Shown in pieces: positions 1-41,671 of a stretch of DNA of 64,000 nucleotides (the first letter of the stretch is position 1; each line of letters opens with the position of its first letter). Under the pieces are notes generated by a model. That model ran no database searches and was not told the DNA's origin. It was given only the letters and a program-made list of their open reading frames with translations. This stretch comes from Vermamoeba vermiformis (Eukaryota): the NCBI GenBank assembly GCA_045837725.1, contig JBEWZL010000227.1:62001-126000 (forward strand). Direction: 5' to 3'. Position numbers and translations under genes: made by a program.

Positions 1-801
1 GTCTTCGTCATCTTCAACCTCGTCTTGTTGACTATTGTCCTTTTGATCCTCGCTATCTTCAGCGTCATCCTCTTCAGGTACATCCAGAGCAAAGAACAGC
101 GGAGGTAAGTTTTCTAGCTTTCGTGCCTTCATCAATTCCTTCGCTTTTTTAGTATCGTCGAATTGACACGATGCAAATCCGTTCCATTTCTTAGCTTCCC
201 AAGCCCATCCACGAGATGTGAGTTCTTGTTCACGTAACACGCACCAAAAGTAAGTTTTCTCGACGAGTTTTATCGATGGATCGTCCGCATCAATTCCACC
301 TGCCATAACTTCGCTCCATAGCTTATAGTCAACGCGCTTTTTTTTCTTCTCTATCTTCACGGAGAACTTTTTGTATTTATGGTAGATCCATCCGGTTACT
401 GTGTAAGACAGACTCCATTCGCGGTACTCTAAATAGTTGCTGAATATCGAATTTGTGGAACACTTCATTAGGAATAACTCTTCATTGGTTAGAAGATGCT
501 TGGGTATTGACAATAAATAACGAGATGAATCTGTTTGAATTTGTATGTTGCAAGCCGTCAAGGCGGGAATTCCGTATTTTTCTCTGACGTAAAGAGCTAT
601 GGCACGGGTTTGAGAGGATATCATAGCAAATAGCGCCACAGTTAGCGTTTGATCTTGAAAAGTGACAGCGGATTTCATGATATGTATCCATAATTCGTTT
701 GGAAGTGGGTCGATGGCTTTAATATAATTATCTATTTTTTGTTTTTTATTTTCTTTCTCCTCACTAACGTATTCGAGCTTTCTTTTATTGTTTTGGCTCA
801 T
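1..801 (-). CDS. F-box-like protein, intronless, running off the window start (3' end missing)
   Basis: Open frame from ATG 801 to position 1: MSQNNKRKLEYVSEEKENKKQKIDNYIKAIDPLPNELWIHIMKS...; the LPNELWIHIM motif is F-box-like; basic NLS-like N-terminus; acidic stretch at the window edge. Absent from the ORF track, probably because there is no stop inside the window. Confidence 0.6.
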   Translation of the reverse strand, partial: MSQNNKRKLEYVSEEKENKKQKIDNYIKAIDPLPNELWIHIMKSAVTFQDQTLTVALFAMISSQTRAIALYVREKYGIPALTACNIQIQTDSSRYLLSIPKHLLTNEELFLMKCSTNSIFSNYLEYREWSLSYTVTGWIYHKYKKFSVKIEKKKKRVDYKLWSEVMAGGIDADDPSIKLVEKTYFWCVLREQELTSRGWAWEAKKWNGFASCQFDDTKKAKELMKARKLENLPPLFFALDVPEEDDAEDSEDQKDNSQQDEVEDDED

Positions 802-1149
802 CCTAACACCCGCGTACCTTCGAAGCTAAGCTTGTATTAATAATAAAGTATTTAATAAACATGTTCTAATCGCTGCAAGCTGTTGCACACGACAGAAAGT
901 TATGAAAAAGAAGTAATTCGAGACACTTTTTCCGTAGCCCCTGGTCCAAAAAAACAAGCAGCTCAACTTCAGAGTTTAATTGGCCAATCGAATCGTATTA
1001 TTTAAGTCGGTTCCTATAATTATCACCGCAGTTGCGTTTTTTCTTGGCCTGACTTTCAAATAAAAGCAAGCAACGTCAGCGTTAAGGCACAACACGCTAA
1101 AAAAAAAATCTGACGCCTTATTAGTATACACTAGCACTATTGAACAATT

Positions 1150-3283
1150 ATGGATGACAACAGCAATTGGAACGACGGTGGGGAGGAAGTGAATTTCCGT
1201 AAGTCCACATCCCAAATTTCAATAGTCCCAATTTATTACTCATGATAGTAATTATTTAGTATAATAATATTTATAATAAAATTTACGAAGGTGTTAATAA
1301 TTTAAACGGTTTTTAATAAAGATAACTATTTTCTAAATTATTTTTATCCTTCGCTTCTAACGATTAACTACTAGAGAGACTTCCTCAAGATGAGCCTAAA
1401 GATGAGGTTCTAGTGTCAGATCAAATAACATTGGATCTGGCTAAATTGTATCATTCACAAAAATGGACCGACGTAACCTTAGCCGTAAGAGATAGACGAT
1501 TTAAAGCTCATCGCTTGGTACTATCTTCAAGAAGCACATATTTTAACAACCTGTTTGAATCGGAGCCAGACAAAGTGCTCTTCGATTTGGATTCAGCATT
1601 CAATCCAGATGCGTTCGAAATTGTCTTGGAATACATTTATAGCGCTAACATTGTTGTTAATCGAAAGTTAGCGGATGATATTGCAGATATTGCGGTGAAA
1701 TTGGACCTCAAACAGGTAAGATCCTTTCTATCTGAAACGCATCCGGAAATTTAAATCAATTTCTGATTCTAACTAAATTGATTTTGATATGTAATGGTAT
1801 AACTAGTTACTAATGACTCTTATTTTAGCTTTCAATTTCGTTGGCAGGCTTTTCGGGAACGAAATTGAGCAAAGAGAACGTGCTGCAAGAAATTCAGCGC
1901 TATTATGGCAAAAACAAAGCGGCGCTCGAGCACTGCTTAAGATTTTTAGACCATAATATCAAGACAATAGGCGTCGATAATCCTCAATTATTGACGATGC
2001 CTTTCGAGATCATGAACGAGATCGTCAAAAGACAAACCTTAGGCATTGAAGAGGTGGATCTGCTGCAAATTTTGATCAATTGGAGACGCGAGCAGGAGTT
2101 AAATAATGATACCGATACGGTCAAGCGACAAGCTACTCAATTAGCCCAACATTTGAAACTACATCTGCTACATCCAGAAGCGTTCTTTCATACCCTCAAA
2201 CCGACTGGCTGGTTCGCTACGGAAGTATTATGGGACACATTGAACGAAATGATCAACTCCAACAGAGGCTACCCAATCAGAGATAGGCAGGACGGTGATC
2301 CAAGATACACACCTCGCAAACCCGGCCCAAAAATACTTAAAAAACGAAAAAATGCAGCTGGACCAACACCAGCGGACGTTCCTATTGCCATATTAGGAAT
2401 GGAGGCCAGCGGAAAAACTGTTATGTTGTACAAGCTTAAGCTGGGCGAAGTCGTTACTTCTATTCCGAGTAAGTCCCGTTGAATTTTGATGTTATGATCA
2501 AATTTACCGATCATTTTATATTAACAATATCGTATTATTGTTATATTAATCAAATTCGAAATTGAAAGACAAATTTAGATCCGGATTCGTTTTTTTTAAA
2601 CAAATTCAAAATGTTTCTTTGGCGCTTAAATAATTAATTTATTATTTTTCAGCAATTGGATTCAACATTGAAGAAGTTACATACAAGGGTACTAATTACA
2701 AACTCATCGATTGCGGTTACAAAGTTAAGAACAACTGGATGGATCTAGTTTCACCGAGAACAGAGGCGTTAATATGGGTCATAGACTCGAATAATAGAGA
2801 CGTCGATTTGCTAGTCGAGGGCGTTGAGTTGAAGGAAACTTTTGACAAATTTAACAAGCCTTCCATGCCTGTATTAGTCATTGCGAACAAGCAGGATATG
2901 CCTAACGCTAGATCTGTTAACGAGATCTGTGAGCTGATGGGGTACGTAGTGTTTACTTATATTAGTATAATACGATGATATTATTGGATGTCTAGTCAAT
3001 CCAGACGAAAACTATTTTTTTTCTGGATTCGCATCCAATACGTTCGCTCCAGATCTTGCTTTATTTTTCAGACTGCTTAAAGCCATATAATAATGGGTAC
3101 ATTTAGATTGAGAGATTTGGGCTTGAAGTTTTGGTTCATTCAAGCAGCGTGTGCTACAAGCGGCGACGGATTATACGAAGGTACGACTACGCTCAAATTC
3201 ATTAATTTTTCGATTTATACTGACTTATTTAATAATTAGGACTTGATTGGATTCATAACCAGTTAGGAAGAGATGACGAGTAA
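1150..3283 (+). CDS. BTB-BACK-like domain fused to a C-terminal Arf-family G-domain (copy 1)
   Basis: Exons 1150-1198, 1375-1715, 1829-2468, 2653-2941, 3107-3180, 3240-3283 join in frame through GT-AG introns. BTB motif [26 protein letters not shown]; Arf motifs [36 protein letters not shown]. Confidence 0.85.
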
Positions 3284-3366
3284 TTTCAGATCCGCGTTTG
3301 TACCGGTACAAACAGTAGCGATAAATATGTGGCCTTTTAAATTGATAATAAATAATTTACTATGAA

Positions 3367-5972
3367 TTAAATATGCGTTTTCAAGACGAAAGGAATGTAT
3401 ATCACTCCAATGAAGGTGAGCAAGAAATTGAATCCGATCGAGTTGGCGTTCGCGTTGGATGAGGCCTTAGAAGGAGTCGATTGAGAGCTGGGCGACTGAT
3501 CTGCGATGGGAGATGCCGAGCCAGAGGGAGGCACGTCAATAGGACACTCTGACAAGCCAATTGAAAAGAGCGGTGCTGAAATGTTGAGGGAGTTGTACAC
3601 TGTTGGAAGTGAATACGCACCCCACGCGTAGCGAATTTGAACAGCTGATTGGCTGCGTAAGATAAAATTCAGTCAATAGTGAATAAGAGAGTGTCAAAAG
3701 CCTCAAATATGAGCTCGAATATCTGAAGTGACATCCAGATTTAAAATGCGTCAAAGTGTCAAAGTGTCATTTGAAGAAAGTAGAGTGTTTGAGACGTCTC
3801 TTTAGCAATGTGAAAGATATTACGTGTCAAAGTGTCAAAAGTGTCAGCACAAACGTACTTTGAAATGGAGTAATCACCGCTCAGGATCACTTGAGTTTTG
3901 TCTTGACTGAGTGCGTACGAAGCAGTGTACCACGCACTGCCGTTGTAGACTCGCCAGGGCCAGCCGCAGTTTGTTTCGTTGAGTCCGACAGGACATGCGA
4001 TCGCTTCTGAAAGCATGAGTCCCTAATGAATGATCGATCTTTAATTACGCCGTTCATGAACGCTAATAATCAACACTTACATCGCCAATCGTATCTTTCA
4101 CGAATGAGATTGCAATGTCGCTTGATCCGTCATTTGCAGAGGCACACTAGAAAATGTCAGCGAGTCAATTAGCGAGATATTGTACAATTCGTACCGATGG
4201 AATAGGTCCGTTCCAAGTACCACTCAGGCCATACACAAGTCGTCTTGTGCACAAATAAGCACGATAGCCCACTGGCTCTTTGTAACGCGGGTGCTGAAAG
4301 ATGATTAGAATGTGACTATAAAGCGTATTTATAACTTACAATAGAGCCAAAGGGCGAAGTAACGTCACCGAGTTCAGTGGTGCTAACGAGGCAAGAGTTT
4401 TCAATCGAGTCTCTGAACAGATCGAATTGCACCGCTCGGAATCTTGGCCAGTTATCGCCGTTCTCATTTAGCGGTGCCAATTGGACAAAAATAAACGGGA
4501 AATCTGGCGTCACGAGCAGTAATTAATTAGAAATTTCACGAAAATGACGCATGTCAATTTTTTCAAGCCAGAACTTACTTGATTGGAAACGAGTGCGATA
4601 GTCTTCAACAAATTTGGGTAAAGTGCATGCGTAAAAAGTATCAAAACCGACATTAGCTTCACCTTGGTACCAGATCATGGATCTGATCGCCATAGGCAAG
4701 AACGGATAGACCATTGCGTTCCATATTGCTGATTGGCCAGATACAAATTTGCCACAGCCAGACGAATTGGCGACTTGAGGACTGACCCAACTTTCAATAC
4801 TCGTTCCAGGCCAGTGATTCGCGACCAATCCAATCGGCACTCTGTTGTTCAGTTCGTTGGACATGTGCATGGCATTCCACCAACACACAGCGCTCACTCC
4901 GACAGTGGAACTAACTCCGGCTCGAACCCAACTGATGCTGCCGTTGATGACTGGATTAGGCGTCCAAGGGTCCTATTGAAAATTCGGTCATTTAACTAAG
5001 TCTTAGTGACGTACAAAAATATCGCCTGTCGTGGGATGAAAAAATGAAAATTCATTAAATAATAATTATAATTCATTAATTCGAGGGGTAGTGAGTATTC
5101 GTAATGAAATTTCAACTGGCATAGAATATTTTGATACGTATTCATTATCAATACTTCTGGGACTTCTTATTTCATTTATAGAAATAACATAGTGCCCGAC
5201 GATCAACGGAGTTAACAATTATAGAGGGGGGACTTACATAAGGAGAAGCACTGCTAACTTTAGGCACTTGAGCGATTCTAATGTGCGAGTAGTTAACTGC
5301 AGCTCTAATTGCATCGCCACCGCCAAATGCGCTGTACAGAATGAACTGTTTATAAAAAAGTGACACGTGTCATTATCAAAGTGTCAAACATTGAATCGTA
5401 TAAATCGAATGACGTACTTCCATATTTGACTGTCCCGAGCAGTAATACACGTCACCGAACATGACGTCTGTCAAATTGGCGAAATTTCCGTTGGCTCCTT
5501 GAACCAGAATGGTGTAGGGACCTCCAACAGGCTTTGGAGGTAAAGTAATGAGCCATCTAATTGAAGTACATGTTTTGTTAATATTAATAGACTCTATTAT
5601 GGTTTATCCTGAAAAAAGTCGTACTTTCCATCCGAATCTGCTGTCGCTTCGTAAGTTTCGCTTTGTTGGTTAGCGTCAATGAGATTCAGTTGCACTTTAT
5701 CAGACGCAATAGACCATCCCCATATTTTAGCACTAATATACAATTTAATACACGATTAAAAAAAATTATCGTTAGCGGATGTGCCCTTACTTCTGCGGTT
5801 CTCGCTGTAACACCATGCTAGAGCTGAATACATTTGATACTAAAGGCAGAGGAGCACCTATTTATTCAATTAGGACTGTTACAGTTAGAATTTTTTACGT
5901 ACTCCACGCTGCGGATTGAGCCAAAGCACCGCTTACGGCAAGCAATAAACACAAAGCTAGTGAACACTTCAT
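3367..5972 (-). CDS. SIAE: Secreted sialate O-acetylesterase (SASA/SGNH family) with Ser/Pro-rich linker and hydrophobic C-terminus
   Basis: Signal peptide MKCSLALCLLLAVSGALA; motifs SMVLQREP, FGDVYYCSGQSNME, GTSIESW, IWYQGEAN, FIFVQLAP, SIHPRYK; multi-exon. Confidence 0.88.
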
Positions 5973-6695
5973 TGATGCAAATTCAATTGGAAAATAATTC
6001 AATTTATGATTGATTGATTTTGTCGGCCGTATTGCGAGTTTGGGCGAGTCCCATGTGTGACACCAAAATGACATTTTTGACGTCATTGCGACATCATTGC
6101 AACAACAATGAGTATTTTTAGCCTTGGATGTACGTAGATATTTTTGCTTTTATAAGGCATTGTAATTCGTAAGGCCAGAGACTGCTGAAGGCTAGCTCGG
6201 TGAGCACAATAATAATGACTACCTTAAAAACTCAAAACTTCATTACCAGTTTGTTGCAGTACGTAGAAGGCTATCGAAATATCAATGCACGAGCTTTTGA
6301 ATTTTCTGTGCATTTAAATAGGAGATTGGATCATAAACGCTATTTTCGCCAGGTATTTTCTGCGACCTTCGGGCATAATTTTTGTTTATAGTTATCGTGT
6401 ATTAATTGTAGATAAGTGCAATTAATTATCTAATTATTATAATTTTGTAAAGATAATTGAGTAATTAATGAAAATATCTGAATTAATTATCTACCGCGAT
6501 TGTAGCCGTCTTATTCTAATAATGTTTGCTAGAATAGTGAAACTATTTTTATGTCAAGTAATTTTGCTTACGTGCGCTTCTTGTTTGCGTGCTTCGGACG
6601 GTCCACCGAAAAGATCTCGACGTCAGCAGAATTCTGGTCCTCTGTCTACAGACGATTTTTTCAATAATTTGCTATGTAGCATTTTATACACCAAC

Positions 6696-7750
6696 ATGGA
6701 CGACGACTTCACTCGCGAAGAGATAGCAAAAAGTAAGGCTTCCGTAATTTAAAGACTCGATCGAAAAAAAAAGCGAAATTTTGCCTCCTTTTTCTTTCTT
6801 TTTCTGATATTCTTTATAGGGAAGCATGTCATTATCTCAAGCAAAGGATTAGGCCCAGATTTTGTAGTTCTGTACCGATCTCAAATCAAAACGGATGTGA
6901 CCTTGGTTGTGCAGTCGAAAGAGTTCAAAGTTCACCGCTTAATACTATCCACACGATCAAAATATTTCTACGAATTATTTAACACATTTCCATCTCGGTC
7001 TAGAATCGAGCTAAATGAAGCTTTTGATCTGGAAACGTTCGATCGAATTTTGGAGTTTATTTACGGCGGAAAAATTCATATTGATGGATCAACTGATATT
7101 AAGGAATTAGTAAAATTAGAACGCCTGGCCAAAAGATTGGATCTGAATTTAGGAAAGGTAAAGATTAGAATTAAAAGTTTTTTTTAACTAGGGCAGATCC
7201 GACGCCAAGTGGAGCGAGGATATAATAATATAGTATACTATTACATTATAATCGTTATTCAATATTTGTTTAGGTGTTTGAAACGAAGAAAAAATGGCTG
7301 GAAGAAATAGATCAATTCGTGCATCGCAATATCGTGGTCAGCCAGCTTAAAAGAAGCTTTGCATTAAACAAGAAGCCTCAAATAGATCGGTGTATGCAAG
7401 TCATAGAGGACTATCTGCCTGATCTGTACGGACATCCGGAGATGCTGCAACTTCCGTTCAAAATTTTGCTCGCGTTTGTTTCTAAAGGAAATAGAAAATT
7501 CACAGTGGAAGACCCCCTTGTATTATATTTATTTTGTTGGTATTCTGCTCAAAAAGAAGAAGGCGTCGAAGAATTCGTTTTAAAGAAGCAGATGCGGCAG
7601 CTTTTTAAGCACATTAACCTAGAGCACGTTGAATTTAAGAAAAAATTGGATGTATTGCGACCAATGGATTGGGTCTCTGCTGAAGAACTGTGGAATAGTC
7701 ACTTAAAGCAAATTGAATTTTGCTCTCAATGGAGGGCAAATCAAAACTAG
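6696..7750 (+). CDS. BTB-BACK-like protein without GTPase domain (paralog of the BTB-Arf genes)
   Basis: Exons 6696-6732, 6820-7157, 7274-7750 in frame; TDVTLVVQSKEFKVHRLILSTRSKYF; same first two intron positions as the BTB-Arf genes; stop codon before any P-loop. Confidence 0.8.
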
Positions 7751-8003
7751 CGGCATAAAGCGAATAAAAAAATCAATTAAGTGCATCACTTAAGAAAATG
7801 CAGCGTATTCCATTTAAATTAATTTTCTAAAAAGCGACGCGTCATTTTTTGTTCGTTTCTGTTACGGATCTGAAAACTTGACTAGGAATAATAATGTGCC
7901 TTAATCATACAATATATTGTATACTTCATTGGTAAAGTGTATTATTTATAATACGTATAACAAGTACATACGAGCAAAACTCAGTTTATTAAATAAGTTA
8001 CTA

Positions 8004-11000
8004 TTACACATGCTGGAACACAGTTTCGTTGCCAAAACTAATTGCCTTTTGCAGCGCGTCACGTGATATCATGCCAGCAAGTTTACCATTTTTGGTAACA
8101 AACGCATTCTGCAACCGCAAAGTGATGAAAAACAAGTGGACTTGACTGAGCGGCGTATCAGGTTGGAATTGAATAGGCGCGCCTTGAATAATTTGCTTCA
8201 ATTTGTGTCTAATATCGAATTTTTTCTTGCGCTGTTTCTCTAAAAATTCAGCCGTTGATTTGCCTTGTGCAATTAACTCGTCTATCTTGGCCTGTCTCTT
8301 TTCTTTTTCTTTGTTAATCTCGTACTGCAGGGACGTTACAAAGCCTAATAACGCTTCGTAGTTTGTCGTGCCAACCAGCGTCTTATTTTCTATAATGAAA
8401 AAAATTGTTAGCCGAGTTGCTGGGGGCTACTAATTCGTCAAAAATTTTCAATAAAATGTTAAAAAAACATTGAAATTAAAGCAAAGTTTCCTTAATAAAA
8501 GATTGACTATTATAATGTGGAGTACTCCACATAAAATTTTTGTGAGTGGATATGGCCGAGTTGTGATAGGTAAAAAAACATGACAGATCCGTCGTCATTA
8601 AAATTTTGACAGGTGTCATAATCACTAACGTACCAGGACTATCAACAATAGGAATGCTATGCGTTCTAAAGTTCTCAGTCGTAGCCCAACGTTGCAAGAA
8701 CTGTTTCATGTCTCGCAGCGAGGTCTTCATCGTCAAGAAATTGTCAACGCGTGGCTCCATGATGTCACGTGCTGTCTTTGATACCGTTCTAAATTTGGCA
8801 TTCGTTAGAATATTCGCAATGATAGGCAGGAAAGTTTTAAAGTCGTTAAAAGCGAATAAGAAAAAATGATTGATTTCCAAATATGGTAATGGTTTTGATA
8901 AGTATCGCGTACCCTAAGCCCAAATCAGGCAAGAAAGGCAAGCCTCTGATCAACGAAATGCTGTCGAAGATTGACACGGACAACTTTTGCGAGACACCTT
9001 GGGCAATTACGACGACCAACTACAGCGAATGAGTATTGACTTTTTCATTACCATATATGGTAATATGGTACTTACGATGACAGGCAATGCAAAGTTGAGT
9101 TGACCAGTGATCTCGAACATGATGACACTCATGCTCAATGTGTGCGTGATACCCGCACCTATCGCTGCTGTCCCGACAATTGCATAAATTCCCGGACTCA
9201 GGGAATTTCCGCCCGACCCGAAGTTGACAGCTTCACCGACCATGCGACCAAATGACGCGCCTATCACGAGCACTGGAATGACGACTCCGAGAGGTAAAGG
9301 CATCGACAAGGCGAGAATGAGCAGTAACATCTATTAAATATGTATTAGTATCGCATGATACACTTGTTAAAACAGATTTCAATGAATTCTTCGTAAAGTG
9401 TCAAAGTGTCAAAAATGTCATTTTTAAGGGTCAACTTCAAGTGACACGTAAAGAGTTTGTAATATCAATAGTGAAGTAGTATTTGGGGTGTATGTTAAAC
9501 TACGTACTCTTATGAACATGAACATAATGAGCGAGAAATAGACGCTAATGTCACTCCAGTCCGTGTTCAATTTGCCCGGGGGATACGGCACCAGTGGACT
9601 GCCTTGGTACAAATCTTTCAACGCTGCAAAACTGCCCAACTATAATAACAGTTAAAGTTAATCATTATATTTGCATATATATGTTAATGATTTTAACGCA
9701 CGCCAATAGGATCGTCGATGGCACCAGGGAATGTTATCAGAGCTGTAACAATGCCTGCAACAAACGTGTACGGATACGGGCTGTATTAATAACGTTAATA
9801 AAGGTGGTTATTGTTATATATATATTATTAAGACCTTACTTTAATAGCGGGTATTGAGTCGCATAAGCTCTTCTGAACTTGATCCACTTGGAGTTAACGA
9901 AGATGAAACAAGCCGATAAAGCTCCACCAGCAACACCTATTCGAGCATTAATGGTTAATATGAGTATAGTATAGTCTAATGTTCAAACGTACCCATGGCA
10001 ATGAACACAAGAAATTCCCAAAAATTCGCTTTTGCAATCACGTCGTCATAATCAGTTGGCAAATAGGCACGTAACAACGCTGGAAAAAAAACGATTAAAA
10101 TGAATATTATAAATACGATAAGCATAGATAAAGCTAAATTTGGCTCTTACGATATCCAGCGATTTGATTGGTCAAAATTTTGAACAATGTGCCACCAGTA
10201 GTTGCAGCGACGAAAGCAAACCAATAATTACGCAACGGATAATACGTCGATGTTACTTCAATACTGAACAGCACGCCTACCAATGCTACGTTAATATTTC
10301 CTTATTTGGTAACAATGGAGTGAAAGGCCGTACCTCCAATAGGACTGCCAAAGTTGGATGCGACACCACAAGCTGCAGCTGCTGCGTACATTTGTTGTTT
10401 TAACGATGGATTCTATTTGTATAATATGTAAGTATATGTAACATTGGGTATTTTATATTAATAATGCTCGAATGTAGTTTGGAAATGAAATTTAGATCGA
10501 GATCCGAATCCGGATCTTCTCGTAATTAAATTTGCACAAATATAATTATGACTTACTTTTTTAATCTTTCTGAAGAATTTCAATTTGGACAGCTGATTGG
10601 CAATAATACTCGAGGTGTGCACAAAAGGACCTTCTTTGCCGACAAACAGACCGCAGCCGATTGCCGTTGACAGACCGAGAATTTTGCTGAGCAGTGTTTT
10701 GAGCGACAAATACTGGCCTAGTGTCACGCCTGACAGCACGCACTTCATCTCGGGAATACCCGAACCTAAAAACAAAATCGTTAGCTCACTCAACGAAACT
10801 ATCATTTGCATAATTATTCAGGATAATATATTATAATGATAGTGTTAACTACGAGGTTATTTGATTGCTGTAGATCCGGTCAAAACTTATCGGATCTAAA
10901 AGTCTCGTTGGATTGCGTTGACTTGCTTAAAAATAATTTTGGCAAAGTGCCAGTATTTGGTTTAATAATATTATAGTGATATATTACTATGATAAAGCTA

Positions 11001-13082
11001 ATGAAGTAATATTAAAGTGCGTGACTTACCTGCAGCATTTGCACTAATAACTTGTGTGAAGAAGAGAGATAGACCCAAAAATGTTAACATGTGTGAGACC
11101 CAAATAAAGTATCGCAAGTAGAAGTCTCCTGTGAGTGTCAAGAGGAACGAGCGTACTATAAATAGAAAGAGCGATGAGTATTACTATAAAAGGAAATTTG
11201 GTCAAAAGTTAGGTACTGACACTCCAAAATGTAAGAAATAAAAGTATCCATAGCCACTCCGACTAGCGCAGCAATGACTCCCAAAATAACCAAAAATACG
11301 ATTGAAATATTGGCCTCGCTAAGAAGATTCAAAAATCGCGAGAAAACGTAACGGATCTTCCTTCGTGGCGTATCTGGTGGATAAACTATTGTTCTTCGCT
11401 TGCTCGCCTAAAGACAAATTTATTAGTATACTATTATGATACTAGTTATAGGATACATACCTTTCGCTTCTTACGCTTCAACTCTTTCGCGATCTCAGCC
11501 GCTTGACTTTGTAGCGTGGATTTGAAGTGGCCAAAAATTGTTTGTTCGTAGCCATAATCTCCCTTTTCTGGCGGCTCTATACATATTCGTTAATATACTT
11601 ATCACAGATATCAATCAAGACGACAAAGAGTCTCAAAATTGTTGCAGTTCCGATTCGGATCGAAATATTAAAAACTGTAATTCTCGATAAATACGTACGA
11701 TTAGGATCCATGCCCTCGGGTGGCTGAATATCACTACCACTATCGCTCAAGTTCAACAGATTGCGTTGATTATCTTGACTGTCCTGATTCTCGTCAGCGT
11801 ATTGTCCGTGATGGTTTTCCTCCAACATTTTGCTGTCCAATCGAGGTACCGTACCAAATCTGCGCAAGTCAAATTCAGCGCGACTGTCCATTGTTTGCAG
11901 GTAGTCTATACAGAAGATGAAACGGTCAGTACAAATAGAACTATTTGTGGATCTATTTAACGCCCTTTCATTATCCGTGGTGTATTGGGTACATAAATTA
12001 ATATCAATAAAATATAGGATTATTATGATTTTTAAAAAGCAATTGTAAGCCATTATATAAACGGATGTGACTCGATTCTTAAAGAGGCAAAATTAAGCAC
12101 TTACCGCTGCTATTATTAGACCTCGGAGAGTCAGATGAGACTTGATCGTCCATATCTTCAAATATACGAGGTGGTTCGGGCTTTTCAGGTCGTTTTGGCT
12201 GATCGCTTGGTGGCGCGAACAACGAAGACGGACCATTACCAAATATAGAAGCCAGGGATGATGGCATGTCAGATGGGGGTTGCATACGATTAATAAGGCT
12301 ATTGTTGCTCGGCAATTGTTGGTCTTCATATTCGTCTCCTTCGCTGATCGCTTCGTCTAAACCAGATTCGAGCCCAGATTCACCTGTGAATAATAAAATT
12401 TAGCTTGTGTAACTAATTTCAAAATAATACAACGATAAATAAGCGATTATTTAGCGATAAATAAGTGCGGCATATCAGTTTGTTCGGGATCGGAACTGGA
12501 TCAAATTACTGTTGCATTATTTTGTACTGTAAATAATAGAATAATGTTTCAATATAAATATTATAACTACAAAATTTATATTAATCTATTCCTAAGGATT
12601 GTTATTAAAAAACCCTTCGATCGGATTTCATTTTTTCGGTTTTAAAATATTTAAGCGAATTCATCGCTATGAAAAGTCGGGCACATTAAATATACGATAT
12701 ATTTGCATATTGTACTGCAAAATAATTTGAGCTGAGTTTAAACGCTGAAAATACAATATTTTTACGAAATACCGCGCGAATACTTTCATAACGAAAATAT
12801 TTAAACAGCAAGCATAAATGTGATTAATTAATTTAAATATAATCTCGTAAATTTATAATATTGATATCGGACTTTAAGATCCCGTGTATTTAGTATGAGC
12901 TCACCTCCAGAGTCAATTTCAGGGTGATTAGCGCCATTAGAAAATTCATGATTATGAGGCACATAACCGTCAATGGGCTCGTGATCCAATTGCTGGTCTT
13001 GGTGCGTTGGATTCGCATCGTGATCGATGTTCGACTCCTCGTCTGTGTCTTCCAATCTATTCCACGGGTTCTTGTCAGCCAT
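8004..13082 (-). CDS. CLC chloride channel (ClC-1/2-like) with C-terminal CBS domains
   Basis: Motifs [60 protein letters not shown] repeats ([22 protein letters not shown]); long disordered N-terminus; start ATG 13082 inferred. Confidence 0.92.
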
Positions 13083-13371
13083 GGGAATATTAAAATTATC
13101 AAATAAGGAACATTAAATGCACTTGTTGTTTGCTTCGAACGCTATTTCAAAAATAGCCGTTGGACAATACTGAATTCGCTTGGCTCCAACAGTAAGAATT
13201 TATTTGAGGAACCATTAGCACATATCAACTTATATTCACCACTGTTTAAGGTTCCTAGGGCTTTAAGGGCCGCCTTAGTAATTGCCCGGACAAACAAGCA
13301 GTTTTTCAGATCTAACTCCGAAATAGCACAACAATTGGTTGAATTGGTATTTCAATAATTGTAGCCTCAAT

Positions 13372-15812
13372 ATGACGACGGAGTACCCATTGTGCCCTTC
13401 GTTTACTCCAGCACAAGTTAGTACTGGTAAGAGATACTAAAGATCTTCTTTAATTTATTTAACACGAGCAAAATTAGGGTTCGAAGGAATAGAATATTTT
13501 CGTGGTGAAATTCAGCTAGCTGCGACGATAATTATCGTTGGAACCATGATGATTTCACAAATCTGGTTAGGGCTTTTGTTTTTGCCTATCCCACAGCTTC
13601 CACAATTTATGAAAAAATTGGATATTGAGCTTAATTTTGAGGAGATATTGGAGAGGAAAAAATCACAGCTGAGTGAGGAGGATAGTTTATTAGGAGAAGA
13701 AGAAAATGGGAAGATCGAAAAAGAAAATCCGAAACCTCTATTGATTATTTACAAGCGTGGCTGTTGTTTGAAAAACTATCCACGCGTAATAGAATTAGAG
13801 AATTTATCTGGTCGGCACTAAATAATAACCTTAATGTAAATGCAGTAATCTCTCACTTCATTGCAGGAGTCACAAGCAAATGTCCTCTATGCCCGGGCAA
13901 AGAGACTGTTAATCATCGAATTATCACATGCGACTACACAGCAGATATCACACGACAGTTCCGTACATTCTGGCATACATCCACAAACAAAAATTTACCT
14001 GAAGACTTCAACTTAATGAACGCCCACAACATTAAACAACGACAGCAATTGCTCATTAACTTATACAGCATTGTCCTTTATTCAATCTGGATAGTTAGAA
14101 ATAACAAAGTGTTCAACAACAATTTAGTCCCAATATCGCAGATTATAGAAAGAGAACTGAGAAGATTCTACGCCAAGATTTCATTTCGTGCTAAATTAAG
14201 TATCTCACAAACACAAAACACTCAAAAGCTATCAATCATCGATAACACTAGAAGGAAATGGTCAAATACAATGTTCGACTTTGATCAAGACGCAAATGTA
14301 ATTGTACAATATAGCTTCAACTGGCAGTAAAGTGGACAAATTCAAAGATTGCTCTCTCTGGTGCTTGGCAACCCCAGGGCTGGAGATCAATATAAGCAAT
14401 TCAGTCGGGCATTCGGCGACCCCAGATGCTTGACTGTTGCTTGGATTTGTTTCGCTTGATTGATCTACTGTAATCAAACGACGCTTTATGCCAACGTTTT
14501 TACAATAGTGATATCAACAGTTGTTGGTCTAATAAATGGAGATTTAAACAAAAAAAATAAAAAAATAAAATAAAAAAAAAAAAAAAATCCGAAACGACCA
14601 AGAAGAGCATCTGGAGGCGTGGCAACGGTAATAATAGTGGTTATATTGATTATAGTGAGCACTACATCGTTTGTTGTGACGAACGAATCAACAGGATCCA
14701 TTAGTTTCCAAACTAACCAATTATCGACGACCAATTTGTTATCAGATCAACGAATGCAAGCAGGCCTCTTATTCAATTTTGGAGAATACAGTTCTTCTGG
14801 CGATGCATATATTATGTTCAAAGATCCTCGAGACAGCAATCCTAAGCGGCAATTCGGCTGTAAATTACAAGTGGCGTACCAAGAGCGGCCTTATCTAACT
14901 CCGTTACCAATTTTTCCGTTAGATTTGGCTTCTTTACGACCTATCAAGGCATTTAATGGTGTTCAGCTTTATGCGACGGTTTGCAGAGCAAATTCAAGCC
15001 GATCTGTTTTGGTGGATGTGAGTACTCCCGTAATACCCGCTTTGGAACACTATCCTCCTCCTGGAATATTCACGGATAAACCTCTTAAATTGCAAATGTA
15101 CAGGGACTCAGTTAAGGAGGTCAGTGTTATCAATCTGACTTGGACTTGGGTGGAAATGGTTTCGACATCCGTGCTGGATTTGCTAAGTCCGTTGGTAAAT
15201 TCGAGGAAATTGCAGGCAAAAATTGGATATCATCTTGATACGAGATCAATAGCAGATAATTTTACGTATACTTCTCCCGCCGGCTGGACGGTCAGCACAT
15301 CTTGGCCGAACTGCACAGAACTTCCTAATTCAGCCTATGAGCCAATATTATCGTTTATAGTGTCAAATGTGGAGCAGGATCCAAACAACCAATCATACAT
15401 TGTGTCGGAAAAATCTTTGTTGTCGTGGGCCTTTGCAACACTGGTAACACTTGGTAGCGTTATTGCGCTAAAGCCAACTATTACAAAATACTTAGAAAAG
15501 TTGTCGAATTATTGGACGATGAAGGCGTGGGCGAGATGGGTGTTATTTGCGATTTATACGGTAATTATGCCGTTGCCACTAACCGTAGTGTTGCTTAAGT
15601 TGGCGAAGTTCCAAGAAGAAAGGGTTAAAATTCGCGGGGCTACGTACGATTATTACGCTTATATGGGATTATGGCTCATAATGCTTTGCATTCTCGAGAT
15701 CATAATGTGGCTCGCAGTTCTCCTCCGTCAAATCCACAAAGTTGTGACTGACTGCCGAAAACGCCGTCAAGAACAACTAGAGATAATTTATATGGGGACC
15801 GAAGATATATAA
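13372..15812 (+). pseudogene. Multi-pass membrane protein gene (509 aa when reconstructed) interrupted by a retrotransposon insertion
   Basis: Exon 13372-13426, intron, then exon 13478-13735 joins in frame to 14596-15812 once the insertion and one TSD copy are removed (…KENPK|RPRRASGGVATVII…); 1530 nt open frame; about 5 hydrophobic segments. Confidence 0.8.
13736..14583 (+). mobile_element. 5'-truncated non-LTR retrotransposon (L1/Tx1-like): ORF2 C-terminus, 3'UTR and poly(A)
   Basis: Frame open 13737-14330 with zf-RVT-like CPLCPGKETVNHRIITC and SIWIVRNNKVFN; AATAAA at 14531; A-rich tail about 14546-14587; flanking direct repeat AAAATCCGAAAC at 13724-13735 and 14584-14595. Confidence 0.9.
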
Positions 15813-15986
15813 TAAATATCGGAATGTTAATCACGGGTTTCCACGTAAGCAACTTTTTCAAATAAAAAACGACGTTGCAGTTCAAAAACAGACGTGCACC
15901 AGATACAATGATATTATTTAATTTCCGAAGATAGTACGGAAGCAACCGCTTGGTAATCTCATCATTACCTTTACAACAATCAATCT

Positions 15987-17955
15987 ATGGATTCTTTCGA
16001 AGATCTTGATCCTTTCAGTAAGTTTGAATCTATCGTAATTAAAGGCAATTTTTTTTAATATTACCAAATAATAATTGATACTCCTCGTTAGGGGATTTCT
16101 TTAGTTGTCGAGTTATTTTACAATTTTTTCAAAATAATTTTTATTATTACTGACGATCATTGATCTTACCAGAAAATTCATCATCGAACCCAGCATACGA
16201 CATGTTGTCGCAAGGAGATCAATTAGTGCACGACCTTTTATCCCTGTATCGATCTCAAATCAAAACGGATGTGACGCTGGTTGTCCAATCAAAAGAATAC
16301 AAAGTTCACCGCTTAATACTATCCACACGATCAAAATATTTTAGCAAATTATTCGAAGAGCATCCAGATCAACATAGAATCGAGTTGGACGAACCATTCA
16401 ATTTAGTTGCGTTCGAACACATACTAGAATATATTTACGGAGGCCAAATCATGGTTAATACAAGTAATATCGATACATTAGCAGCAATCGCAGAGAAATT
16501 TCGCTTAAAAAAGGTAAAGTCGTTGTAAGATCTGATCTTTGGTGCGGAAATTTTATTAATATTTTATCTCTAATTATTTGATTAACGATTTATGAATAAT
16601 ATTAAATTTTAGCTTATTTAATTGTTATTATTATAGTTATGCAGACTTTTGGGAAGTTTCTACGGCACAGAATTGACCGGTGACAACGTCGTTAAAAAAT
16701 TAGTCCACTATCATAAGACAGAGAACAAACGAGCAGTCCAACAATGCTTATTATACATCGATCATATATTTACTACGAATTACAGATTAGAAAAGGAACT
16801 TTTAGAGTTGCCTTTCGAAATTTTGATCCAGATCGTGCAACGCAAGACGCTGGATTCGACCGAATCGAGGATCTTAAAGCTGTTAGTTGAATGGCATAGC
16901 CGTCGTGTAGACGATTTGGTTGATTCGGATATATTGCAGAAACAAATGCAGCAGCTGTCAGCACATCTCAATCTATTTTTATTGTGCTTAGAGGATCCGA
17001 TGCCTTTGTTCAACGTTCTTCGGCCTAATGGCTGGGTCACCGATGTAGAATTATTATGGAATGCTCTTACAACTAGGGTCTCTGCGGGAGATATTGGAAT
17101 CGGAAGAGCAGAGACAAATCCGATGTTCATGAAGCGCAAACCTGCACCAAAAATTTCTAAAAAGAAAAAAGAAGCGTTCAAAGTGGCTATTTTGGGCTTA
17201 CCACGTGCTGGCAAGACTTCGGTCATGAAGTACTTCTTGCGTAAAACACATCCTGATCTTCAAAGTAAGTTCGTTTGGCAAATCCAGTTCCAGTTAGGGC
17301 TCTTCACGAAAAACGATCGTATTAATAGTATTATTATTTATAGCAACGACAATTATGGTGGAGGAATTTGAATTTGAAGGCAACACCGTTCAATTACGCG
17401 ACTTCAATGCCGAAGATGCTCAAAAACTATGGTATTCAGAGGTCAATAAGGGCATTGATGGACTAATATGGGTGATTGATGCGACAAATCTATTAGAAGA
17501 GAATATCGACGCCATTAACAACATCATGGACTTCGTTGGCCAGAAAGATCTTCCAGTCCTGATCTTAGCGCACAAGAGTGACATCAATACTGCCCGAACG
17601 GACGACGTAATTAGCTTCTTAAGGTACTTTAATATTTTTGATAGAGCTGTTCATAACTTTCAATCCGTTACGTTTTTCCTAATTTGGAAATTCTAACACT
17701 TCTATATAGAATTACAAGGAGCGTGTATTTTAGTCTCGCTAAACGTACTATACTGGACACATGGCATATAGTTTCAAGTAACATGAACACCCCAGGATCG
17801 TTAGATGACGGTAAGCTCGACAGATCCGTACAAACGTCGCCACATAGGCAAATTAATTAACGAATTAATTGCTAGGCATGAAATGGTTATTAGAGAAGAT
17901 GATAGAGAACACTCTAAAGAGGAAAAAGCACGGTGTAATTAGTCGAGCTAAATAA
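15987..17955 (+). CDS. BTB-BACK-like domain fused to a degenerate C-terminal Arf-like G-domain (copy 2)
   Basis: Exons 15987-16017, 16173-16513, 16637-17264, 17344-17623, 17710-17810, 17876-17955 in frame; BTB motif; P-loop GLPRAGKT, GLIWVIDA, LILAHKSD, SLDDGMKWL. Confidence 0.82.
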
Positions 17956-18064
17956 ATCTTCCGCCTTGGATCTGCCCTAAGACAGCTTTTCAATCAAAAA
18001 TGAGGTCCTTATTATAGTATTATATTATTATACTGCTATGAGTCTTTGTTATGCTATTTGCCGT

Positions 18065-18958
18065 TTATTCTCGCACAACGGTTATAGTGCACGGACATTC
18101 TTTGACGGCATGTTCAACAATGGCTGACGAATGTTTAGCTAGGGTACCTTTAGGACTATAATACCATAATATATTATTATTAGTACAATAATTGATATTC
18201 GAATGCTATTTCGGTCAGATCTGACACAATGAAAGTACGTACATAAATCCTGTGTTTCCTAACACAACCTCTGCTCGTTCTCTTGTAGCTACTTTGCATA
18301 TTTCTTCGGCAATATGTAGAGGACCGCTCCATGATCTATATAAAAGAGTGTTATTCGATGGCTTAATCAAGCTGGATGCGATCCGATCTCGAGATTCGAC
18401 TTGCTAGTAATTTTAAGTAGAAAAAAGCATGTGATGCAAATTATTATGATTATATGCGATAGTTAATTATTTAGCTACGTACTCTACGCCGACGACTTGG
18501 CCCGTGCAATTTCGTCCAAGTTCTTTGCACTTGTTCAAATAGCTCGATAATATTTCGCGGCCCTTCTCTGTGCTCTTTTTGTTCTCTTTCATAATTTCTT
18601 CGTTTGCGGAGGTAAAAAGTGATTTAGCTTTGTGTTCTACGAGCGTAAGAAGTATGATCTGGTCTTCTGGCCGACTATTTCGAATAGCATAAGCAAAAGG
18701 CTGATAAAAATATGCTATTAATTTCGGCGTAAATATTAGTCGTAATTTTCGAGCACGAGTAATCAATAATAAATAACAAATAAAATAATAATTAATTTCA
18801 AATTGGTAGAGGGCTTCTTTTTGCGTAATTTTGCCACTTGATATTTTAGTACACTAGCGTTGCGCATTTTTAAAAATTACGAGTTGATTTACCTTCAGAC
18901 TGAATGGATTTGCATCTAGCGCAACCAAAAAGTTCCTTTTCTCCGGTTGAAATGACAT
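18065..18958 (-). CDS. Universal stress protein (UspA-like)
   Basis: NFLVALDANPFS…FAYA…IILLTLVE N-terminus; IAEEICKVA…VVLGNTG; C-terminal VEHAVKECPCTITVVR; 4 exons. Confidence 0.8.
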
Positions 18959-30005: not shown

Positions 30006-32068
30006 ATGAAAGTCTTGATTGTCTTTGCGGCCTTGTTGGCTGTGGCTTTTGCCGGAATTACTTTCCCCAACATCACTCAAAACTACGGTTACATCAACGC
30101 CAACAGGTAATCAGTCGCGAGATCCATCGATCTACCAACTAGATTTTGTTCTTGGCTTATTATCTTTATTAATCCTTCTAATATTATAGCCAATATGGTG
30201 TCAACTTGTTCTACTGGGAGTTCGACTCTTTGGACAAGCCCGCAACTGATCCTCTCGTTGTTTGGTTGACTGGTGGACCCGGCTGCTCTTCTGAAGTTGC
30301 TATGTTCTTCGAGAACGGCCCTTATACTGTCAACGACGACTTGACTCTTACTTTCAATCCTTATACGTAAGTGCGGAGAATGCGGATTTGGATCAAAAAA
30401 ATATTAAACGGTTTCAATGAGGCTTAATTTTAGGAAAAATTAGTGCTATATGAAAATAGCACTAAAATATCATTTTTAAGTATTTTAATCGATAAAATTC
30501 TAATACGTTTGTATTCCATCCTCGATCTGCTACCGTACAGCAAAGAGAACCATGCTTTCTCTGCTTATATCTATACCATTATATGAATCTAATAATTGAT
30601 CGCACGACTACGATGAATCTAACGATTGATTACACAGTTGGAACTCTCACGCCAATTTGCTCTACGTCGATCAACCGGGAGGGTAATGTTTCGCTGCGAC
30701 TGATCGTTCTAATAAATAGTATACTAATATTCGCCAATGTAGCACTGGCTTCTCTTACGTCAACAACCCTTCTGGTTATGTCCATAGCGAAGATCAAGTT
30801 GCCGATGACTTCTACACTTTCCTCGTTGGTTTCTTCAAGAAGTACCCCAAATTCGTTGGTCGTGACTTCTATATCACTGGTGAATCTTATGCTGGAGTAA
30901 GTGTTTGAACCTTCACCACTTGTTGAATTATCCGTTACAAATCCGCGAGTTTGAACTTGTTGTTTTACTGCTGAGACTGACTCGCTTTGTTTAGCACTAC
31001 ATTCCTGCCATCGCCGCTAAAATCGTTGATATGAACAAGAAGAGCAGCTTCAAGATCAACTTGAAGGGTAAGTAACACCAAATCCGCGACCGGATTCACA
31101 TCTGAACTCGAAGCTAATCCTTATTTTATCGCACAGCCGTTGCTATTGGTAACGGTTTGGTTGATCATCTCATCCAAGACAAGTCCTATGCTCCTTACTT
31201 GTACGCCCACGGTTTGATCGGCCAAGACGTCGTTCAACAAATGAACCAAGCCTACGCTCAATGCCAACAAGATATTGAAGCTGGTGAATATACGAACGCC
31301 TTCAGCGACTGCAGCTTGGTTATCCAGATTGGTCGTCAAGCCGCTGGCAACATCAACGTTTACGACATCCGCAAGCAATGCGACGGCAATTTGTGCTACG
31401 ATCTTAGCAACATCGAAAACTACTTTGCTCAATCCTCCGTCATTAACCAGCTCGGCGTTGGTAACGCTCAATGGACTCCTTGCAATGAATACGTTTACCA
31501 ATACTTGGTTAATGACTTTGAGGCCTCGTACAGATTCGATCTCGTCAAGTTGTTGGCAAACCAAGTCCGCGTTCTCATCTACAACGGTAAGTATTAATAT
31601 TTGGAGAATTTATCCATATTTTTGGAATTACTTGGCGGGTTTTTTGGACCATTTTCGGATCGAGGTGGATCGCATACTTTGAACAACTTTCTGACATTTG
31701 TTAATTCAAGGTGAATACGACTTCATCTGCAACTTCTACGGCTCTGCTGAGATGGTTAACACTATGCAATGGTCTGGTCAACAAGCTTTCCTCCAAGCCC
31801 AAAACACCACTTGGAACTACAACGGCCAAGCTGTTGGTAACTCTCGTACTGCCAACGGTTTGACTTTCGTCGTCGTTTACAATGCTGGTCACTTGGTTCC
31901 TCACGATCAAGTAAGTACTGATAAGCCTATCATATCATTTTGAAAAGTTAAAGCTTTTTGGTGTCTGGATGTGGCTCCACGTACTGACCTTTTTTTTTTT
32001 CTTTCTTTCAGCCCGCCGCTGCTCTTGACTTGTTGACTCGCTTCATCAAGAACAAGCCTTTCAACTAA
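30006..32068 (+). CDS. Serine carboxypeptidase, peptidase family S10 (copy A)
   Basis: Signal peptide; [52 protein letters not shown]. Confidence 0.95.
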
Positions 32069-38850: not shown

Positions 38851-39719
<869 letters not shown>

Positions 39720-40011: not shown

Positions 40012-41671
40012 ATGGCGCTCTCGATAATCCAAGGCCTCGTGGACAACGGCGCTTCGTGAGTACAATAATTTTATAATTCAGAAATTCCAAATTTATTTGT
40101 CTTCAAGTAAAACTCTTTAAACTAACGGTGGATGTAGGTCACTTCGAAGCTTGCATAACCGCTTCAATAAGTTCACTGACGAGCTGGACGAAAAGTTGCC
40201 TACTCTATTCCACAACTTGGTTCAACCCTCGCGTCGCAATAATAACGGAGATCAAATAGAGAATCAATTTCACGAGCTAATTTGGGATCTACCGCAAAAA
40301 CAAAAGTCGATCCTGATTACAGAGGACAGTTTGCCCGAAGAAATTTTGATATTGATATTCAAGTACTTGGGTCCTAGTCCTAAAGAACTCTTAACTACAG
40401 CAGTTGTATCAAAGTAAGTGTTAGAATTCTGCACGAGAAAACGTTTAAAAAGAACTAAAATTTGAATTATTTTTCAGGCAATGGTACAGATTATCTTTCG
40501 ATCAAGAAGTATGGGAGACCTTATTCTACAGACAAGAGTCGCATTGGGACAGCTTAGTCTCGATTCACGACGAAAAGCAAGATCTCGGCAAGAAACTTTT
40601 GGACACGGGATCTAAGATCCTGCAATCAATTTTCAAGACCTCAGACACTCCTACTGAAGAAGACGAGGCCCTTCAAGTATATGACTGGCGCAAATCATAT
40701 ATCAAGCAGTACATCCACAACACCATTGTCGCCAAACGCATCCACTCGCACATCCAGTCAATCCGCAAGAACGTCGTCGATAATGAAAATTACGCATTTG
40801 TTCAGCCGTTAATGAATCCGTGGGAAATGAAATCACCCTTCGCTGAATCAGTGCGAAATCCGTTCACGAAGAAAGTCTTTCGAGTTCCAATGTTCGGCGA
40901 GGTAAGTTCATGATTGAAACTTGACACGTGTCATTCACAAGACCCTAACGATACTTAACTTTTAAGGGTCTCGAGACTAGTGCTAAAAAGCTAGTGTACA
41001 ATATGATGTGGGGTGATAAGTCACTGTTCAAGATCAGCAATTTGTACCCTGGTGTCGAAGGCATCGGATCCGGCGTAGGCTTTGAACTGATCAACGGCGC
41101 AGAGATTAACCTTGCAGTGATGCATCGTTATGAAGACAGAAAAGTGTTTGAATCCGTCAGACCCAAATGGCGCAAATTTTTCAAGAATTCTGAAGGCTTC
41201 ATTTTCGTCATGAGCCACGAAGTCGATATTGCAAAGACGAAGAAAGAAATGGACAATTTCATTAACGACCAGTGGACACGACCTGATGCACCACTATTGA
41301 TATTATTTGATCCTAATATCACTGGTCCCGTGCCTGACGAAGGTGAAGAGGATCCGATTCTTCAGAATAACAACACCGAGCCTGCCGTTACCGAGAATAG
41401 AGACATGTATAATGATCTATTAGGCGAGCAAGCTGATGCCGACAATGCATCGGAAAACTCCGCGGAAAGTTTGCAATCTTCGACAAGTTCAGCGGATGCA
41501 CCTCCGACCGAAGAAAAGAAAGTGAATTATTTGGCGGGAAAACGACCAATTGATATTGTCAAAGAATTAGGCTTGGAACATATGAAGCGAAAATGGTGCG
41601 TTAGAAGATTTAACGCGAAGAGTTTGGATGGAGTTTATGAAGCGTTATTGTGGCTTACCACCAATAACTAA
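40012..41671 (+). CDS. FBXO4: FBXO4-like F-box protein with C-terminal small-GTPase-like domain
   Basis: F-box SLPEEILILIFKYLGPSPKELLTTAVVSK; VPMFGEGLETS and EGIGSGVGF resemble the FBXO4 MFGPGLE/DGIGSGV motifs; Arf-like GFIFV and DGVYEALLWL. Confidence 0.8.

Follow-up and report, generated by a model that had tools for sequence, protein, structure and literature searches.

BTB-BACK proteins fused to an Arf-derived domain in Vermamoeba vermiformis: gene models, transcripts and a plausible role as CUL3 adaptors

What kind of protein is made where a BTB-BACK module runs, in one reading frame, into an Arf-type GTPase (G) domain? The question is raised by a 64,000-nucleotide stretch of Vermamoeba vermiformis DNA, hereafter the window (assembly GCA_045837725.1, contig JBEWZL010000227.1, positions 62,001 to 126,000 of the forward strand; positions below are counted from its first letter), which has about 38% G+C and short GT-AG introns. 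A first-pass annotation had read two genes here as encoding a BTB domain, BACK-like helices, a basic linker and an Arf G domain, and a third paralog as stopping before the G domain. Here, we report spliced models with exact coordinates which, together with the Pfam matches, bear out this reading, its coordinates included, for gene 1 (1150-3283, plus strand) and gene 3 (15987-17955, plus strand); gene 2 (6696-7750, plus strand) is the copy without the G domain. Genes 1 and 3 are confirmed as complete six-exon fusion genes, their expression as spliced fusions is supported by transcript-like contigs, and a CUL3-adaptor role of their products is plausible from the predicted fold.

Two fusion genes and a copy without the G domain

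The exons were joined by a script from stop-to-stop frames and the raw sequence. Gene 1 encodes a BTB-BACK-linker-Arf protein of 478 amino acids in six exons (1150-1198, 1375-1715, 1829-2468, 2653-2941, 3107-3180, and 3240-3283, with the stop codon at 3281-3283), and gene 3 a BTB-BACK-linker protein of 486 amino acids with a degenerate Arf-like domain, likewise in six exons (15987-16017, 16173-16513, 16637-17264, 17344-17623, 17710-17810, and 17876-17955). Each gene reads as a single open spliced frame, all 10 introns have GT..AG borders, and the two genes agree in the positions and phases (1, 0, 1, 2, 1) of their five introns. A single exon, in one frame, holds BACK, basic linker and P-loop in gene 1 (1829-2468) and likewise in gene 3 (16637-17264).

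Within gene 1, the BTB domain occupies 1443-1715, the BACK-like helical domain 1829-2251 (PF07707 match at 1922-2194), the linker with its RKPGPK motif and basic run 2252-2377, and the Arf-type G domain 2378-3280 with three introns inside it; the P-loop is at 2396-2419, an altered switch II (DCGYK) at 2709-2723, and NKQD at 2886-2897. A Pfam scan of 10 exon translations (cut-offs of 20.9 bits for BACK and 22.3 bits for Arf) found BTB (PF00651) in all three BTB exons (E 1.8e-21, 6.5e-19, and 6.2e-22 for genes 1, 2, and 3) and BACK (PF07707) in the three following exons (25.9, 17.4, and 18.5 bits in the same order). Arf (PF00025) was found at 54.8 bits in the gene 1 exon frame 2634-2978 (exon 4), at 20.6 bits, just below the cut-off, in the P-loop piece inside the BACK exon, and at a marginal 23.0 bits in the gene 3 exon frame 17298-17696; the two short C-terminal exon frames had no Pfam match.

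Parts of the region 1100-3400 are contained in 20 public sequencing runs, and four runs that share an organism label contain about half of the words sampled, which is roughly the exonic share. The contigs of two such runs, X1 and X2, were mapped on 1000-18100, and the joints and pieces given here are those listed in that mapping. All five joints of gene 1 occur in X1 and/or X2 contigs (1198|1375, 1715|1829, 2468|2653, 2941|3107, and 3180|3240), as do two joints of gene 3 (16513|16637 and 17264|17344). These contigs skip exactly the predicted introns and join the BACK-linker-P-loop exon to the Arf exons; they also show several CT..AC introns in a minus-strand ClC gene between genes 1 and 3. Their depth is zero in the intergenic bins 4426-6709 and 14704-15845, as complementary DNA (cDNA) would give. 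Because introns are skipped and the intergenic bins have no depth, we consider that the X1 and X2 contigs behave as cDNA. The earlier claim that the fusion is no splicing artefact, put forward because BACK and the P-loop lie in one exon, thus holds with the one frame and the skipped introns, and the contigs run into the Arf exons instead of ending before them. Please note that three points limit this use of the contigs: X1 and X2 are taken as RNA by guess only; none of the contig pieces listed reaches from BTB through the whole G domain (in gene 1 there is a gap after 2303, and the pieces start again in the same exon before 2468); and two runs of the same species label that are marked as RNA sequencing, X21 and X22, gave 0 reads on 1000-18100, which with about 6% of each run read is no test.

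Gene 2 encodes 283 amino acids of BTB-BACK in three exons (6696-6732, 6820-7157, and 7274-7750). Its stop codon (7748-7750) comes directly after BACK, exactly where the linker of its paralogs begins, and downstream of it tblastn with the relative P0002 (below) against the window returned no Arf remnant at E<=1, in agreement with the annotation's view that this paralog ends before the G domain. A contig of run X2 over 7272-7781 is unspliced through the stop codon. Gene 2 is nearest to gene 3 (267 residues align, 40.4% of them identical; at the DNA level, a 132-nucleotide stretch at 83% identity), and it may have come from a gene 3-like copy after loss of the linker and G-domain exons. On the other strand, the multi-exon ClC chloride channel gene with a CBS domain (about 8004-12400, minus strand; Voltage_CLC E 4e-13, CBS weak) is convergent with gene 2, its 3' end lying about 250 bp from the gene 2 stop codon.

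Relatives of the fusions are few. P0001 (474 amino acids) and P0002 (471 amino acids) are intron-free and 70.3% and 68.8% identical to gene 1, with Arf matches of 133 and 131 bits and BTB matches of 67 and 77 bits, respectively; they lie on contigs of 1616 and 1537 nucleotides, therefore too short for five introns. With the BACK-linker-P-loop exon as its query, a HMMER search through 1.84 billion representatives gave 30 proteins at E<=1e-3 and seven at E<=1e-10, among which P0002 is the sole full-length fusion. Six others (P0003, P0004, P0005, P0007, P0008, and P0010) are fragments in which BACK-like helices and/or the linker run in frame into the P-loop. In P0003, P0004, P0005, and P0010 the residues beyond the Arf 'IP' position are unrelated, as expected of unspliced exons cut at the same intron. 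In the alignment, the fragments split into a gene 1-like and a gene 3-like group. A homologue search with P0002 (lengths of 259-825 amino acids) returned 346 matches among 6526 candidates; among the 120 matches listed, BTB and Arf are combined only in P0001 and P0002, and the others are tandem or mis-fused Arf proteins. The BTB-BACK-Arf family is thus rare in the collections searched and probably confined to one poorly sampled clade. For P0002, the nearest clusters in the ESM Atlas are RhoBTB at 0.87-0.88, where values below 0.9 are a lead only; the same search returned no BTB-Arf cluster of at least 50 members, a blank that is no evidence of novelty.

The linker is a shared mark of the family. 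Genes 1 and 3 carry RKPGPK and RKPAPK, respectively, each followed by a run of Lys and Arg, and the conserved motif (2252-2377 in gene 1, 17100-17180 in gene 3) is kept in gene 3 and in P0001-P0005, P0007, P0008, and P0010. Common to the fragments is (R/K)(K/R)xPGPK with basic residues next to it, a short distance ahead of the P-loop. In the structural model of P0002 (below), the RKPGPK block at residues 281-290 has a mean predicted local distance difference test (pLDDT) score of 87, and the blocks flanking it 62 and 47. Possible roles of the RKPGPK linker are in nuclear localisation, as a membrane patch, and in docking.

An Arf domain with altered switches and no N-terminal helix

The origin of the fused domain was approached from its nearest structures and from its introns. 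Against the PDB, P0002 scores highest with Arf1 (155 bits), followed by Arf6 (132), Arl1 (110), and Arl5 (91), and judged from sequence the fused G domain is derived from Arf proper, with Arf1 nearest by this ranking. The window also holds a canonical Arf gene (38851-39719, minus strand; 181 amino acids; exons 39719-39578, 39457-39095, and 38891-38851; PF00025 E 7e-53 in exon 2), to which the G domain of gene 1 is 44.9% identical. This gene has two introns, after 'TIP' (phase 1) and inside 'YEG' (phase 1). Of the three introns within the G domain of genes 1 and 3, two lie at the same positions and in the same phases. Because two introns coincide with those of the neighbouring canonical gene, the fused G domain most likely arose from a resident Arf gene. 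The canonical protein has Gly2 and the N-terminal helix; the G domain of the fusions starts about six residues before the P-loop, after the linker, with neither Gly2 nor an amphipathic helix. The annotation's description of an Arf-derived domain that lacks the myristoylated helix therefore agrees with both the PDB ranking and the start of the domain.

Which parts of the nucleotide machinery are kept differs between the two genes. The G1 P-loop GxxxxGK[ST] is present in gene 1, gene 3, P0001, and P0002. The gene 1 type retains G1, the switch I/interswitch sequence, G4, and G5; G4 reads NKQD, and G5, the CAT motif, reads C-A-(T/V/A) across gene 1, P0001, and P0002. In these same three proteins switch II reads D-C-G, a two-residue deletion, and Y-K; the conserved deletion takes away the catalytic Gln together with the second Gly of DxxG, and the canonical DxxGQ is lost. 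The G domain of gene 3 (P-loop at 17195-17218) has D-F-N-A, HKSD, and no CAT, as well as an insertion before its last strand. There the P-loop alone survives, with G3, G4, and G5 lost, and therefore genes 1 and 3 cannot act alike.

In the gene 1 type, such changes need not mean decay. Gene 1 is 75% and 73% identical to P0001 and P0002 in BTB, 76% and 75% in BACK, 72% and 69% in the G domain, and 51% and 48% in the linker, and among all three proteins the ranges are 70-75% for BTB, 71-76% for BACK, 69-72% for the G domain, and 48-56% for the linker. Since the altered G domain is conserved as strongly as BTB and BACK, it is, by this comparison of sequences, under constraint and not decaying.

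A structural model of P0002 was built with AlphaFold2 from a 27-row alignment and compared with 48,161 chains by VIA-align; it has a mean pLDDT of 84.4 and a predicted template modelling (pTM) score of 0.53. Its G domain matches Arf6 with Z 21.9 and a root-mean-square deviation (rmsd) of 2.1 over 159 aligned residues. Residues 24-272 match the BTB-BACK part of KLHL11 in its Cul3 complex (KLHL11 residues 76-336; Z 17.9, rmsd 6.8, 242 aligned), and residues 25-290 match KBTBD2 in the cullin-RING ligase 3 (CRL3) complex (Z 16.2, rmsd 6.1, 238 aligned), so that the helical region, which the annotation had called BACK-like, is recognised as such by the Pfam profile and by the fold match. The high rmsd in both matches suggests that the angle between BTB and BACK in the P0002 model differs from that in KLHL11 and KBTBD2. 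In Foldseek, GTP-form Arf structures fit the P0002 model better (rmsd 2.5-2.8, template modelling (TM) scores 0.82-0.85) than GDP-form ones (rmsd 4.7-7.4, TM scores 0.61-0.74), seemingly a weak hint that the helix-less G domain prefers the 'on' shape.

CUL3 adaptor, scaffold or regulated ligase

BTB-BACK modules of the KLHL/KBTBD type dimerise and dock on CUL3 in the known proteins that carry them. A CUL3-adaptor role is plausible for the BTB-BACK-Arf proteins because the modelled fold matches the BTB-BACK parts of KLHL11 and KBTBD2. The sole C-terminal domain of gene 1, P0001, and P0002 is Arf; Pfam scans of the gene exons, P0001, and P0002 gave neither Kelch nor another classical substrate-binding domain, nor any other candidate for one. 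We therefore propose, with moderate confidence, a dimeric KLHL/KBTBD-type CUL3 adaptor in which an Arf-derived domain stands in for Kelch, nucleotide-binding and hydrolysis-dead in the gene 1 type, nucleotide-independent in the gene 3 type. BTB-BACK would dimerise and dock on CUL3, and the basic linker would join to it the Arf1-derived G domain that replaces the Kelch propeller. The G domain of the gene 1 type would bind guanine nucleotide, presumably with no GTP hydrolysis and no membrane coupling, and because of these two losses it would offer a permanently 'on-like', soluble Arf surface. This surface may be the partner- or substrate-binding end, and proteins recognising it would be brought to ubiquitination. 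In the gene 3 type, since the P-loop alone survives, the Arf fold would serve as a nucleotide-independent binding module.

Several observations weigh against this proposal. BACK exceeds the Pfam cut-off only in gene 1 and in P0002 (25.7 bits). The α3/β4 loop of BTB in the P0002 model is about five residues long (helix 65-73, strand 79-81) and has no α3.1. The columns of the phi-x-E motif in alignment A1 read E-P-D in the gene 1 type, H-P-D in gene 3, and F-P-S in gene 2; two ordinary BTB-BACK proteins in the same alignment have F-V-E and T-N-E there. In KLHL3, as the text of PMC3616122 describes, the phi-x-E motif is of central importance for binding Cul3: its large hydrophobic residue contributes the largest share of buried surface, and the E85A mutant no longer binds Cul3. 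The column alignment in our proteins is uncertain because the loop is gapped, and L-F-E at the end of α3 could substitute. The pTM of 0.53 leaves the arrangement of the domains undefined. Switch II, which is part of the usual Arf surface for effectors, guanine nucleotide exchange factors (GEFs), and GTPase-activating proteins (GAPs), is remodelled in the gene 1 type, and therefore the partners need not be Arf partners. A predicted complex of two copies of P0002 residues 1-275 scored 0.07 (mark 0.32), which is uninformative either way on BTB dimerisation, and no CUL3 gene is present in the 64-kb window.

The apparent absence of a canonical phi-x-E and the shortened α3/β4 loop would also fit a scaffold that is independent of CUL3, in which BTB-BACK only di- or oligomerises the soluble, helix-less Arf-like domain for bivalent binding or sequestering of partners in traffic or signalling, without ubiquitination. 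The polybasic linker beside the G domain could give it membrane or nuclear targeting, and many non-CUL3 roles of BTB domains are described in the text of Stogios et al. (2005, PMC1257465). We regard such a scaffold as rather unlikely, on two grounds. BTB followed by 3-box/BACK is the form found in the best-matching solved CUL3 adaptor complexes (KLHL11-Cul3 and KBTBD2-CRL3), and an F-box is fused to an Arf-like fold about 23 kb downstream, which points to cullin ligases as a common theme.

This F-box-Arf-like gene (40121-41671, plus strand; pieces 40121-40413, 40478-40901, and 40967-41671) matches PF12937 at 27.6 bits and PF00025 at 30.3 bits, both above their cut-offs, and is the second fusion of a cullin adaptor with an Arf fold in the window, an architecture that Vargova et al. 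(2021) mention as well. Its F-box-like half-domain is cut by an intron, and its Arf-like part has a dead P-loop and no NKxD; in the ESM Atlas, the nearest clusters are Arl16 at 0.92, as a lead only. Please note that its splice sites were read from the sequence and that no start codon was found, which leaves the 5' end undefined. We know of no role of the F-box except SKP1 binding.

If the CUL3-adaptor reading is right, a bolder extension suggests itself: both the hydrolysis-dead, helix-less, permanently GTP-like Arf surface of the CUL3 adaptor and the Arf-like folds joined to an F-box would be decoys of active Arf that capture Arf effectors or GAPs for ubiquitination and so put a ubiquitin-based brake on membrane traffic, tuned by the paralog without a G domain through heterodimerising. 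We consider this unlikely and mention it as a speculation. The first-pass annotation had likewise proposed capture of Arf effectors, GEFs or GAPs; the idea needs qualifying, since switch II is remodelled with the catalytic Gln deleted and gene 3 is without G3-G5.

It is more doubtful still that the G domain is a RhoBTB-like regulatory part that folds back on BTB-BACK or senses nucleotide and so gates ligase assembly, with substrates bound elsewhere, e.g., by the linker or BACK. The confidently modelled RKPGPK block (pLDDT 87) suggests docking, and RhoBTB clusters are the nearest in the ESM Atlas (0.88, a lead only). However, contact of the G domain with BTB-BACK is not modelled with confidence (pTM of 0.53). 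Loss of the catalytic Gln, and of G3-G5 in gene 3, makes a nucleotide cycle unlikely, and the Pfam scans show no other candidate substrate-binding domain in the protein. That neighbouring BTB-BACK and Arf genes were merged by our reading, or that these are decaying pseudogenes, is highly improbable: a stand-alone BTB-BACK form does exist (gene 2) and the G domain of gene 3 is degenerate, but BACK, linker and P-loop share exon and frame in both genes, spliced contigs connect that exon to the Arf exons, full-length intron-free relatives exist, and the frames are intact with about 70% conservation in every domain.

Neighbouring genes and known systems

The window holds other features as well. An open reading frame at 13686-14327 (plus strand) matches zf-RVT (E 4.4e-7), is probably a retroelement fragment, and has low X1/X2 depth. 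Further on, 14574-15809 (plus strand) is an uninterrupted frame of 412 amino acids with no Pfam family and with hydrophobic stretches near its end; it is preceded by an A-rich tract (14545-14588), and X1/X2 depth is zero over 14704-15845. Single exons were recognised of a SASA carbohydrate esterase (4526-4972, minus strand), a serine carboxypeptidase S10 (31118-31594, plus strand), a DUF4291 protein (59012-59359, minus strand), and an ABC transporter ATPase (62699-63076, plus strand). For the S10 peptidase exon, the best named relative is from Balamuthia mandrillaris (49% identity), and transcripts from JGI reach up to 76%. An open reading frame at 1-825 (minus strand) that looked F-box-like by eye was dropped, as it had no Pfam match at E<=1.

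How new is the architecture? The annotation had known of no characterised BTB-BACK-Arf protein, and in part this stands: our literature search found no functional study of BTB-Arf proteins and no paper naming such a protein, and no BTB-Arf architecture was found in the text of Stogios et al. (2005, PMC1257465). The combination itself is in print. In the text of Vargova et al. (2021, PMC8358228), a multidomain architecture is given for 75 of the more than 2,000 ARF-family genes curated there, and ARF domains are fused to BTB or to F-box in lineage-specific, uncharacterised proteins, which are read there as recruitment of ARF into ubiquitin circuits; no taxon is given in that text for the plain BTB-ARF examples, and a Malawimonas californiana protein is reported with the order Rab-BTB-BACK-Arf. 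The latter resembles the fusions here in having BTB-BACK followed by a C-terminal Arf, and it differs by an additional Rab domain at its N terminus. That text describes neither the switch II deletion nor the RKPGPK linker nor the two subtypes. Thus, both the architecture and the idea are already in print, and the family reported here is uncharacterised. What is added are two exact gene models with transcript support, two subtypes, the switch II deletion, the linker motif, the introns common with the neighbouring Arf, and the paralog without a G domain. Their immediate value is for annotation and as a candidate for biochemistry, in an organism without genetics; the conserved switch II deletion offers a natural 'locked' Arf to study, and the neighbouring F-box-Arf-like gene suggests that this organism arrived at the solution more than once.

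Among known systems, the KLHL/KBTBD proteins (KLHL11, KLHL3, and KBTBD2) share with the fusions the order of BTB and then 3-box/BACK, with a C-terminal domain at the place of the substrate receptor. They differ in that the fusions have an Arf-type G domain for Kelch, a short α3/β4 loop, and apparently no canonical phi-x-E, at 15-19% identity. If the proposed mechanism is true, the fusions would be the first case of a GTPase fold at the substrate-receptor position of a cullin adaptor. RhoBTB1/2/3 also combine, in one chain, a Ras-superfamily G domain of defective GTPase chemistry with BTB, and passages in PMC12722892 and PMC4931677 describe them as CUL3-linked, class I pseudoGTPases. In RhoBTB, however, an N-terminal Rho domain is followed by two BTB domains and no BACK, whereas the G domain here is of Arf type and C-terminal, with one BTB and BACK; RhoBTB and BTB-BACK-Arf were invented independently. 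TRIM23 (ARD1), counted as an ARF-family member in the text of PMC12722892 and PMC8358228, is similar in joining an E3 ubiquitin ligase module to a C-terminal Arf domain. TRIM23 is animal-specific and is itself the ligase, with RING, B-box and coiled coil, whereas here a cullin-adaptor module carries the Arf domain, switch II is without the catalytic Gln, and Pfam scans of the gene 1 exons, P0001, and P0002 gave no RING or B-box family. Should the mechanism proposed here prove true, this family would be the third independent small-GTPase fold built into an E3 ligase, after RhoBTB and TRIM23.

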